Positions 10,067 through 31,539 of a DNA stretch of 64,000 bases are shown here, piece by piece; positions within the stretch are counted from its first letter, which is position 1, and every line of letters starts with the position of its first letter. Source of the DNA: a phage. The position numbers and the translations under genes were made by a program. Location of the stretch: the NCBI GenBank assembly GCA_026066175.1, contig GCA_026066175.1_4721.1, one strand, 5' to 3'. A model generated the notes under the pieces. That model did no database searches, was not told the DNA's origin, and saw nothing but the letters and a program-made list of their open reading frames with translations.

Positions 10067-10277
10067 TGTGCTTATTCCTACCTACATTCCTCAACAATGT
10101 AACGATAACGAATACCGCTATCATCAAGAAGATGAACCATAACCCAACGTTGATTCGGGCTGCAGGTTCATCGACGAGAAAGAACATCCATCCGCAGAAC
10201 CCGATGACAATCCATACCAACACCATCCCGGTTAATCCACGTAACAGCAGATGTCCCATAATCCCTCCTGATTTCAT
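10050..10277 (-). CDS. Small membrane protein (holin-like by size and topology only)
   Basis: 75 aa with two hydrophobic stretches (VLVWIVIGFCGWMFFLV, LWFIFLMIAVFVIVTLL) and a basic C-terminus. Confidence 0.4.
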   Translation of the reverse strand: MKSGGIMGHLLLRGLTGMVLVWIVIGFCGWMFFLVDEPAARINVGLWFIFLMIAVFVIVTLLRNVGRNKHNAKSN

Positions 10278-10444
10278 TTATCCTGATACAACGATAACTC
10301 CAGTCGTAGAAATACCGCTAACGCAATAGACAGTAACGCTACGCGTACCCACATCCCACCTTGAACGCTGTTATACAGCATAAAGACCAGAGCGATGCCG
10401 CCCATATGCAGGCGGCACTTATCGAAAAGTGTTGGTTTATACAT
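10274..10444 (-). CDS. Small membrane protein (ORF absent from the supplied track)
   Basis: Hand translation: MYKPTLFDKCRLHMGGIALVFMLYNSVQGGMWVRVALLSIALAVFLRLELSLYQDK; stop overlaps the start of 10050-10277 (ATGA). Confidence 0.3.
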   Translation of the reverse strand: MYKPTLFDKCRLHMGGIALVFMLYNSVQGGMWVRVALLSIALAVFLRLELSLYQDK

Positions 10445-10664
10445 AGGAAATTAATCGTCGTGTGATTTTTACTTTACCTTTACCTGGGCCTTTCTTGCGA
10501 CGATTCAACAGACGGATGCGGTATCCGGTTACGGTATCCCCATCGTAATCAGCGCGTAACGATAACGAGAGAGCACGATGTTCCCGATCAACGCCCGGGT
10601 TGTTATAGAAACGATTGAAACTTAAAAGATGATTACTTGGAATCATTGTGTTATCCTTACTCAA
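10437..10664 (-). CDS. Small basic protein with KKGPGKGK motif
   Basis: C-terminus RLLNRRKKGPGKGKVKI resembles three small ORFs at 30600-31193. Confidence 0.35.
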   Translation of the reverse strand: MSKDNTMIPSNHLLSFNRFYNNPGVDREHRALSLSLRADYDGDTVTGYRIRLLNRRKKGPGKGKVKITRRLISYV

Positions 10665-29875: not shown

Positions 29876-30264
29876 GATGTTGTACCTCGTTCAGCGATCA
29901 GGAGAGTCTTGGTTACGCTTTTTGCTAACACACCGCAGTTACGATATATGCGCCTAAGGGACGATTTCAATTCGCAATAACGACTAAAATAAACTTTCAA
30001 GTCGTCTCTTGTTACCTCATCAGTATGTATTTTCGTAGAAACGCCGAGATCGATAAACTCTTTTCTTAATTGAGATAGTTCGTCAAGAAGGCGATGATAA
30101 CTTAGAGAGATAATAGATTTATCGGATAGTGGCTCGCCAGTTATCTGGCTCTGACGCTCATCGAAGTATTGTAAGTGCCATTCGATTCGCTTATGCAATT
30201 TATCGAGTAAACCAATAAAAGTATTATAGTTGGTAACGGCCAGGTTAACTTGGCTAGTTAACAT
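29866..30264 (-). CDS. Hypothetical protein
   Basis: 132-aa ORF. Confidence 0.4.
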   Translation of the reverse strand: MLTSQVNLAVTNYNTFIGLLDKLHKRIEWHLQYFDERQSQITGEPLSDKSIISLSYHRLLDELSQLRKEFIDLGVSTKIHTDEVTRDDLKVYFSRYCELKSSLRRIYRNCGVLAKSVTKTLLIAERGTTSWN

Positions 30265-30596
30265 TTCACATTCTCCGTTATTTGCTTTAAACAGTTACGT
30301 ATACTTTTCAATCGATGGTTAAATTCAGAACGATAGCACTTTCGTACATCCCGTCCTGCTCGCGCTTTGTTTGCCTGATGAAGCTGTTCATTCACCTGGG
30401 ATGCTATACGTAAACGCTGTAATAATGACCTCAGCCGAACAACAACCAACGGCTGTTCTTTCACTTTCTCGAGTTTAAGTAGATAGTCAATATGAAACTT
30501 TATTCCGATGATCTGATTCCTATTTTTGCGGTACTGGCGAATATGCCAACATCGACGGAAATAGGCGATGCTAAACATGGGGTAGATTCTCTTCAA
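30258..30596 (-). CDS. Basic hypothetical protein
   Basis: 112-aa Arg/Lys-rich ORF. Confidence 0.35.
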   Translation of the reverse strand: MKRIYPMFSIAYFRRCWHIRQYRKNRNQIIGIKFHIDYLLKLEKVKEQPLVVVRLRSLLQRLRIASQVNEQLHQANKARAGRDVRKCYRSEFNHRLKSIRNCLKQITENVKC

Positions 30597-30599
30597 ATG

Positions 30600-30797
30600 C
30601 TACCTCCGATAATACTTCGGATTAGGTGCTTTATGGTACTTATAAATACCTATTTTCTTCTGTTTGTCTTTACCAGGTCCTCGCTTAACGCGTTTGTTGA
30701 AAACACGATCCAAATATCGAGTAGCTATAAATCTGGACAAATACACCGGATCGATATAATCCATGGTACCTGCTTCTGTTTCTTCGAGACACTGCAT
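30600..30797 (-). CDS. Small basic protein with KRGPGKDK motif
   Basis: RVFNKRVKRGPGKDKQKK; member of a four-copy small-protein family. Confidence 0.3.
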   Translation of the reverse strand: MQCLEETEAGTMDYIDPVYLSRFIATRYLDRVFNKRVKRGPGKDKQKKIGIYKYHKAPNPKYYRR

Positions 30798-30823
30798 CCG
30801 TAACTCCTCTTTCCTCTAAGAAA

Positions 30824-31027
30824 TCAATCCAACATAAGCCACGACATCGCTTTCACGAGATAATCCAATGCAACGTCCATGATTCTTCGTTCCGACGTTT
30901 GTGTGATGCGTGCCGTAAATCGCTTTCCTTTATTACAACCCTTCTTGTATTTCCCTTTGATATAACGAACACCAATCGTGTCACGAATAACAAGTTCGGC
31001 TACGTCGTAGGGCGATATCTTAGTCAC
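30824..31027 (-). CDS. Small basic protein with KKGCNKGK motif
   Basis: RYIKGKYKKGCNKGKRF. Confidence 0.3.
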   Translation of the reverse strand: MTKISPYDVAELVIRDTIGVRYIKGKYKKGCNKGKRFTARITQTSERRIMDVALDYLVKAMSWLMLD

Positions 31028-31037
31028 CGTGTTTACC

Positions 31038-31193
31038 TCAAGTAGAGAAGGTTATCGGCTTTATTTCTACCTGTCCGTACATCCAGGTGTATCTCGATTT
31101 TCCTTTACGAGGACCTTTCTTAAATTTGGTGCTTATCGAAATACGATAACAGTACGACCAGGTCGCACGATTTATAGTGATCTTGTCCGCCAT
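31038..31193 (-). CDS. Small basic protein with KKGPRKGK motif (ORF absent from the supplied track)
   Basis: Hand translation: MADKITINRATWSYCYRISISTKFKKGPRKGKSRYTWMYGQVEIKPITFST; GAGGG upstream. Confidence 0.25.
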   Translation of the reverse strand: MADKITINRATWSYCYRISISTKFKKGPRKGKSRYTWMYGQVEIKPITFST

Positions 31194-31496: not shown

Positions 31497-31539
31497 GATT
31501 ATCCTCCTTTAAGGGCGAGGTACCTCGCCCTTAAGATCT

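Follow-up and report, generated by a model that had tools for sequence, protein, structure and literature searches.

The closest described relative of the DNA analyzed here, a 64,000-nucleotide (nt) stretch of phage sequence from GenBank assembly GCA_026066175.1 (contig GCA_026066175.1_4721.1), is Escherichia phage vB_EcoM_Goslar (here Goslar), a nucleus-forming jumbo phage. A megablast search of the whole stretch, called the window below and used for all coordinates, against 50,697 phage records returned Goslar as the sole match, at 77 to 84% DNA identity. In Goslar, four small genes, gp137 (198 nt), gp138 (204 nt), and gp139 (147 nt), lying in that order, and gp102 (210 nt) at a second site, are all annotated as "hypothetical protein" (QBO63930, QBO63931, QBO63932, and QBO63895, respectively). 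Nowhere in the searched literature are gp102 and gp137 to gp139 grouped as a family or tied to a motif, and no ribosome profiling or genome-wide fitness screen of Goslar was found there. Known elements that may serve as functional analogs, alike by general description, are the β-ribbon arm of HU/IHF, the KOW hairpin (consensus ..GPfKGk.G.V), and the AT-hook (RGRP), all of which are basic, have Gly or Pro at the turn, and contact a nucleic acid groove or backbone. Here, we describe the window counterparts of the four Goslar genes, designated A to D, which encode short basic proteins that share an eight-residue motif. The genes, with protein lengths in amino acids (aa) and isoelectric points (pI), and the coding positions of the motif are as follows.

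30600..30797, minus strand: gene A, 65 aa, pI 9.9, ortholog of Goslar gp137
30663-30686, minus strand: gene A motif KRGPGKDK, residues 38-45 of 65
30824..31027, minus strand: gene B, 67 aa, GTG start, pI 9.9, ortholog of Goslar gp138
30923-30946, minus strand: gene B motif KKGCNKGK, residues 28-35 of 67
31038..31193, minus strand: gene C, 51 aa, pI 10.2, 8 aromatic residues, ortholog of Goslar gp139
31098-31121, minus strand: gene C motif KKGPRKGK, residues 25-32 of 51
10437..10646, minus strand: gene D, 69 aa from ATG, pI 11.0, ortholog of Goslar gp102
10473-10496, minus strand: gene D motif KKGPGKGK, near the C terminus

The motif is far beyond chance expectation, and in each protein no other part is as constrained. 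When the window was translated in all six frames, the pattern [KR][KR]G[PC]xK[GD][KR] had four matches, all inside A to D, compared to a mean of 0.005 and a maximum of 1 in 200 Markov shuffles. Of the 32 motif codon columns compared in five genomes, 15 varied only synonymously and three varied in the encoded amino acid, all three changes being conservative (D/G or K/R), whereas the flanks (17 codons per gene) had 14 synonymous-only and 27 amino acid-variable columns (Fisher's exact test, P = 6e-4). One B ortholog (P0006) reads KKGYNKGK. The paralog cores share 36 to 50% DNA identity, and the same motif residues are specified by different codons; thus, the likeness among A to D lies at the protein level and is not a DNA repeat. 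A DNA repeat or regulatory motif was dismissed on the same grounds.

A preliminary description of this DNA, made from the sequence alone, had listed four motif-sharing open reading frames (ORFs), three clustered plus D. All four were confirmed on the minus strand, which is coding in both neighborhoods, and the quoted peptides were exact. The motif had been called C-terminal, which holds for D, where 11 residues remain after it, and not for A, B, and C, where it is central. Gene D had been placed at 10437-10664; the open frame does extend to a TTG at 10664, but the most likely start is the ATG at 10646, since an AAGGA Shine-Dalgarno sequence lies 8 nt upstream of this ATG and the same start is annotated in Goslar. 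The C-terminal 38 residues of D are almost invariant across the five genomes.

Given how short the ORFs are, and the reported absence of one from an annotation track, it could be suggested that they are chance reading frames in non-coding DNA and that the motif stems from a DNA-level repeat or a regulatory element. This reading, to which we give almost no weight, was refuted by comparative data. Orthologs equal in length and order were found in Goslar, in a 237.5-kb IMG/VR uncultivated virus genome (UViG) that holds all four genes, and in several Logan contigs; frame, length, and order are kept in at least five genomes, and gene A is kept in five. The Goslar proteins are 55 to 82% identical to those of the window (82% for gene A and Goslar_00137), with equal lengths for A and B and 48 versus 51 aa for C, and their motifs are identical in B, C, and D and conservatively changed only in A. 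The synteny that the preliminary description had suggested looking for was therefore found, with the same four genes in the same order in Goslar and other Goslar-like genomes. Over the region of interest, Logan contig L012 and the window share ∼97% identity. A more diverged contig (L011) has the order thyA, 94, 97, C (93), B (72), A (65), and 105 aa, with a diverged 93-aa version of gene C (P0007) at the equivalent position.

The ratios of nonsynonymous to synonymous substitution rates (dN/dS) between the window and Goslar were 0.17 for A, 0.48 for B, 0.39 for C, and 0.38 for D (dS, ∼0.5 to 0.7), compared to 0.18 for the neighboring 97-aa gene and 0.045 for thyA. Values below 0.5 are contrary to non-coding DNA, and the assumption that the four ORFs are coding held. 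The synonymous variation of the motif codons and the low DNA identity of the paralog cores likewise speak against a non-coding origin. Each of the four genes has a Shine-Dalgarno-like site (GAGGAAAGAGGAG 5' of the ATG in A, GAGGT in B, GAGGGTAAGG in C, and the AAGGA of D), the genes are packed as in an operon, and the GTG start of B in the window is an ATG at the same position in the 97%-identical strain. ORFs antisense to A to C are broken in most relatives compared, with in-frame stops in 8 of 9 comparisons. No Rfam family or tRNA was found in the window, and a structured RNA was set aside for that reason. As judged from these sequence comparisons, A to D are genuine protein-coding genes under selection.

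Individual genes are altered in some relatives. In L012 (4001-4360), a deletion of ∼79 nt between short direct repeats (ATGGA), equivalent to window positions 30790-30880, takes out the C-terminal helix of B and the ribosome-binding site of A. Gene A of L012 also carries a 12-nt (4-codon) in-frame deletion, and its frame is intact though the gene finder missed the gene. A single inserted base in the A-run GGAAAAAAG, just ahead of the core, shifts the frame of gene D (L014 3001-3400, L015, and L016; window equivalent, ∼10520-10530) in a Goslar-like lineage seen in three samples (SRR13292340, SRR13292343, and SRR13292345). The core of D in this lineage is fully intact in the +1 frame, and the frameshift may represent a recent inactivation, or D may be expressed via slippage or an internal TTG.

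The family has few members and a narrow distribution. A hidden Markov model (HMM) of the core was run against every six-frame ORF from the window and from the complete Goslar genome. It recovered the eight expected members at E ≤ 3e-9, with everything else at E ≥ 5.8; the window and the 237-kb Goslar genome each have exactly four members. HMMs built from single groups matched the other groups at E values of 0.02 to 0.7, and the other family members were always the best non-self matches. When one group was left out, a model of A, B, and C recovered D at E values of 0.009 and 0.03. The term "paralogs" used in the preliminary description is apt for a motif-sharing family of four per genome, while by these HMMs relatedness beyond the eight-residue motif has weak support; outside the motif and its immediate flanks, A to D are unrelated to one another. 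A D-like relative of 96 aa (P0005) contains a second, degenerate copy of the unit D.D.D..V...RIRLL..RK, which shows that tandem duplication of the module is possible.

An exhaustive HMMER search of all 1.84 billion representatives of ∼15 billion proteins gave 8 matches, all 52 to 94% identical to one of the four queries. A word-indexed search of 5.8 billion proteins with a concatenated query gave no match and missed Goslar's own proteins too, and tblastn against the 50,697 phage records found nothing beyond Goslar for A and D. The flanking 97-aa and 105-aa genes are also restricted to Goslar, so there was no distant synteny to use. Scans of A to D against the profiles of Pfam, PHROGs, and NCBIfam (E ≤ 10) yielded no meaningful match, and the motif, which had been noted as unfamiliar, was recognized as a family in none of the databases scanned (Pfam, PHROGs, NCBIfam, and PDB). 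A likeness of the C-terminal half of B to the first β-α unit of glutamyl-tRNA synthetase (PDB sequences; E ∼0.5) was rejected as chance because Pfam aminoacyl-tRNA synthetase models miss B and no aminoacyl-tRNA synthetase appeared in the search of 1.84 billion proteins. Matches of D to fibronectin FN3 and ribosomal protein S1 among PDB sequences were not significant. On this distribution, A to D are accessory genes peculiar to the Goslarvirus clade, and the A-to-C block is accessory DNA of a narrow Goslar-like clade.

The proteins fit their earlier description as short and highly basic. The window and Goslar members are 48 to 69 aa long; A to D have pI values of 9.8 to 11 and net charges of +6 to +10, compared to a background median pI of 6.45. 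Aromatic residues number 6 to 9 in the window proteins and 2 to 8 in those of Goslar, and no hydrophobic or membrane segment was found in any of the four. AlphaFold2 modeling of a fused four-domain construct of A to D gave a predicted local distance difference test (pLDDT) score of 31, and C was the sole part of this model predicted as a long β-hairpin, with the motif at its tip (very low confidence). Modeled alone, B gave a pLDDT of 55 and a predicted template modeling (pTM) score of 0.28, with H6-17, E18-23, E38-43, and H46-65, a layout of helix, strand, motif loop, strand, and helix (low confidence). The succession of strand, motif loop, and strand is the only feature that recurs in the models (B and C, low confidence). 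The weak PDB matches of D, which are not significant, fall on the FN3 β-hairpin.

In D, the sequence ADYDGD (residues 32-37; window 10539-10556, minus strand) lies directly upstream of the hairpin core and is invariant in five genomes, and at the corresponding place the degenerate first repeat in P0005 reads GDRDSD. ADYDGD looks similar to NADFDGD of the RNA polymerase β′ subunit, a metal-binding motif of the DxDxD type. For a protein of 69 aa, we leave this likeness unexplained and consider it probably a coincidence.

The KKGPxKGK loop is also present in other phage proteins. A degenerate-DNA scan of IMG/VR for K-K-G-P-x-K-G-K returned at least 120 loci, and almost all of the matches listed lie in frame inside real ORFs. 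Beyond the Goslar clade, three groups are prominent among the matches listed: tiny ORFs of pelagiphages, HNH_3 endonucleases, and Mu-type portal proteins. At least ∼54 tiny ORFs (54 to 82 aa; e.g., L031 and L041) among the matches listed end in "...GTQRYRIKKGPNKGK(IL)". The corresponding tiny hypothetical protein of Pelagibacter phages is widespread, is found in 24 cultured pelagiphage records, has no Pfam match, ends in a near-invariant ...GTQ(R/K)YRIKKGPNKGK, and is encoded near lysozyme and maturase B genes or near an M15 peptidase gene. One example is located as follows.

KC465901.1 38812-38976 (L137 3498-3662): pelagiphage gene for a tiny motif-bearing protein

The pelagiphage proteins (HTVC019P AGE60630 and HTVC024P gp31) resemble A to D in size and in the residues GT-x-x-Y-x-I that precede KKGPNKGK, but their motif is at the extreme C terminus, the return strand is absent, and the N termini are unrelated. 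Both host and phage lineage differ from those of the Goslar-like phages. Comparison with the pelagiphage alignment by hhalign gave 23 columns at 84% probability for D and 13 columns at 16% for B, scores that are inflated since the set was chosen by the motif.

Among the matches listed, at least seven viral HNH_3/zf-His_Me_endon proteins (PF13392 and PF05551) have FKKGPRKGKVK between GYG and AHR. In these proteins, for example the 122-aa proteins on L099-L101, the loop follows GY-x-h-x-h in a layout that resembles D and C; unlike A to D, they run on into a catalytic/zinc-binding part (HxCNN...CxNPxHL). Direct reading of A, B, and C revealed no Cys/His pattern of this type. Pfam HNH models hit the motif-bearing viral endonucleases at E values of 7e-9 and 1.5e-7, whereas PF13392 and PF05551 gave no match to A to D (hmmscan, E ≤ 10). 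Mu-type portal proteins carry ...FELVY..PKKGPLKGK.TLKK.... Family membership of the endonucleases and portals was confirmed by Pfam, and both act on DNA. KKGPxKGK recurs as a loop, probably at a hairpin tip, in several unrelated phage folds, two of which act on DNA. Its recurrence fits the structure and action proposed below without establishing descent. As a whole, the sequence data describe A to D as an orphan accessory family that is clade restricted and statistically robust and whose motif recurs in unrelated phages.

The analogs named at the outset were compared at the sequence level. KOW (PF00467) gave no Pfam match at E ≤ 10, a search in which the HMMER speed filters can lose very weak matches, and no confident barrel was predicted. 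HU/IHF (Bac_DNA_binding, PF00216) gave no match in Pfam, NCBIfam, or PDB sequences, and A to D lack its helical dimerization body. On direct reading, the AT-hook core R-G-R-P is in none of A to D, and G-R-P is in none of the loops. SH3-like proteins of the Cren7 and Sso7d type gave no Pfam match; the models were of low confidence, and Foldseek searches (PDB and BFVD) returned noise.

The reading that we favor, at a probability of about 0.4, is that the shared module is a basic hairpin tip that binds a polyanion, foremost nucleic acid. The proteins are soluble and strongly basic and would be produced in the infected cell without being packaged. In the putative module, a hydrophobic/basic strand leads into the eight-residue loop K(K/R)G(P/C)xK(G/D)K, after which a return strand follows, and the module most likely forms a β-hairpin with a basic, turn-forming tip. 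This tip is the probable working surface and would grip a polyanion. The target would most probably be DNA or RNA, held by its phosphate backbone or in a groove, and aromatic residues close by would contribute stacking. A, B, and C probably arose by tandem duplication and divergence, and D would be a dispersed copy. Nucleic acid binding, which the preliminary description had also suggested, is plausible because of the charge, the aromatic residues, the predicted strand-loop-strand arrangement, and the occurrence of the same loop in DNA-handling HNH endonucleases and portals.

Several points weigh against this reading. Basic charge alone is also compatible with binding to an acidic protein or to lipid. 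No DNA- or RNA-binding family was matched in Pfam, PHROGs, or NCBIfam (E ≤ 10) or in PDB sequence searches with A to D, and Foldseek searches of PDB and BFVD gave only noise, except for the Goslar ortholog of B (A0A482GDS2). The confidence of the models is low, and on them the hairpin is a prediction that is not established. A and B were not recovered by the leave-one-group-out HMMs; since recognition by these and by the single-group models is weak, the shared motif is secure, whereas the common ancestry of A to D beyond it is only suggested. Individual members appear to be dispensable, since one lineage has a frameshift in D and one strain a truncated B. The two neighborhoods also differ: A to C lie immediately downstream of thyA and the 97-aa gene, within an extended leftward series of small genes annotated as hypothetical, while the neighbors of D encode multi-pass membrane proteins, two proteins with signal peptides, and a SleB-type cell wall hydrolase. 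With D in a membrane/lysis-like cluster and A to C in a nucleotide metabolism region, the four need not have one target, and any single function derived from context is weakened.

Other explanations were weighed on the same evidence. The four proteins could be host takeover inhibitors, that is, small early modulators whose loop docks on an acidic surface (an acidic tail or a DNA mimic) of a host or phage protein. This would suit tiny, clade-specific, non-virion accessory genes amid runs of small hypothetical genes; loss or damage of members in some lineages is expected for accessory modulators, and tight constraint on a short surface loop suits a docking motif. The inhibitor explanation is nevertheless without a known partner, the proteins have no likeness to known inhibitors in Pfam, PHROGs, or NCBIfam, and the same loop in endonucleases and portals points to DNA contact; we regard it as possible but unlikely. 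A further proposal is that the motif is a recognition or targeting signal read by one factor of the phage or the host, which could serve in nuclear import, localization, or modification. The motif and its immediate flanks alone are shared among otherwise unrelated proteins, constraint on the motif exceeds that on the flanks, and the phage is a nucleus-forming chimallivirus, so protein sorting matters. However, no conserved linear import signal has been found, and import relies on folded surfaces (10.1101/2024.03.21.585822). The motif is in no other Goslar ORF, even those for proteins bound to enter the nucleus, and it is also present in pelagiphages and other phages without a nucleus, which makes a targeting signal improbable. 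An equally speculative variant holds that KKGPxKGK is a portable minimodule repeatedly gained by tiny phage proteins of unrelated lineages (Goslar-like jumbo phages and SAR11 pelagiphages) for one universal target (e.g., the ribosome, RNA, or the nucleoid) or, in this nucleus-forming phage, a surface loop read in sorting. If that were so, the four proteins would be adaptors taking different N- and C-terminal parts to one place.

Gene context raises the prospect of membrane or lysis factors, at least for D, in which a polybasic, aromatic-rich hairpin binds anionic phospholipids or regulates membrane neighbors. The ATG of a conserved 56-aa membrane ORF overlaps the stop codon of D, D has the membrane and cell wall neighbors listed above, and the motif-bearing tiny proteins of pelagiphages are encoded near lysozyme or M15 peptidase genes. 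This case is one of gene order only; A to C lie in a non-membrane neighborhood beside thyA, and none of the four proteins has a hydrophobic segment, so we consider such a role doubtful. The proteins might also be domesticated remnants of homing endonucleases, in which the core derives from the GY-x-h-x-h...GK...HRLV hairpin of an HNH/His-Me finger enzyme and the catalytic half has been lost. Among the matches listed, at least seven viral HNH_3/zf-His_Me_endon proteins carry ...SGYGKMSMRFKKGPRKGKVKSALAHRVALV..., which aligns by eye with D (TGYRIRLLNRRKKGPGKGKVKITRRLISYV) and C (STKFKKGPRKGK), and free-standing HNH genes are present in the phage, as are group I introns. With the motif masked, though, similarity of the flanks to the HNH proteins fell inside the shuffle distribution (the best, D, at P ∼0.23), and the 13 to 15 columns aligned by hhalign are the very motif used to find these proteins. 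Pfam HNH models miss A to D, Goslar's own HNH_3 proteins are without the loop, the loop is also in unrelated portals, and the ORFs are under purifying selection with no decay. Descent from HNH endonucleases, appealing by eye and unsupported after masking, is thus quite unlikely, and the likeness is regarded as a structural analogy. The preliminary description had also offered packaged internal proteins, which would be injected along with the DNA. Some phages do package small basic proteins, such as the internal proteins of T4. A complete table from liquid chromatography coupled to tandem mass spectrometry (LC-MS/MS), including low-copy-number proteins, exists for purified Goslar virions (bioRxiv 10.64898/2026.04.21.720040, Table S4) and concerns the Goslar orthologs, not the window phage's own proteins. 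Queried by gp number and RefSeq accession, with the numbering offset checked on gp041, gp146, and gp103, it lacks gp102, gp137, gp138, and gp139, while the neighbor gp103 is present. The Goslar orthologs of A, B, and C each have 2 to 5 tryptic peptides of 7 to 30 residues and that of D has none, so the absence is informative for A to C and silent for D, which could evade mass spectrometry. Packaging was thus unsupported, and, with the genes also sitting outside the structural gene blocks, we think it very improbable. None of these alternatives is preferred to a hairpin tip that would bind nucleic acid.

Two further elements lie near the four genes, as follows.

10274..10444, minus strand: 56-aa hydrophobic ORF (MYKPTLFDKCRLHMGGIALVFMLYNS...), with its ATG overlapping the stop codon of D (ATGTATAA)
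31508..31535: GC-rich palindromic stem-loop CTTAAGGGCGAGGTACCTCGCCCTTAAA, separating thyA from the 97-aa gene, which is first in the run 97 aa, C, B, A

The 56-aa ORF is 171 nt long in four genomes, with a dN/dS of 0.18 versus Goslar and a maximum 19-residue hydropathy of 1.94, and it falls in a gap of the Goslar annotation between gp102 and gp101. The ORF probably encodes a genuine small membrane protein whose translation is coupled to that of D. The stem-loop sits directly upstream of the AGGAGG of the 97-aa gene, and its stem is kept in Goslar by compensatory changes (GGGCGAGG/CCTCGCCC versus GGGTGGG/CCCACCC). It is not a canonical intrinsic terminator, since no T-run follows it on the coding (minus) strand, and it may act as an element for processing, stability, or termination of a phage polymerase. 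In the same interval, between thyA and the 97-aa gene, L011 (1506-1790) has an extra 94-aa gene that is absent from the window and Goslar; a C-terminal segment of its product resembles a helix-turn-helix (...GKEVAMRYGVTPPRVTQIVNEMEKL...). Directly downstream of A is the 105-aa gene (window 30258-30575, minus strand), which corresponds to Goslar gp136 (86% identical) and is found in the Goslar clade only. Its product is Arg/Lys rich by eye, and small basic proteins may be common across the block.

The main practical value of these results at present is in annotation: four genes are confirmed, the start of D is corrected, one further unannotated membrane gene is added, and packaging can be dropped as an idea. 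If the loop is a nucleic acid-binding or targeting element, A to D would be among the smallest functional modules of a nucleus-forming phage, and the eight-residue loop would provide a simple handle on the destinations and contacts of tiny accessory proteins in chimallivirus infection. The recurrence of the loop in abundant tiny proteins of marine pelagiphages suggests that it may be a more general device.

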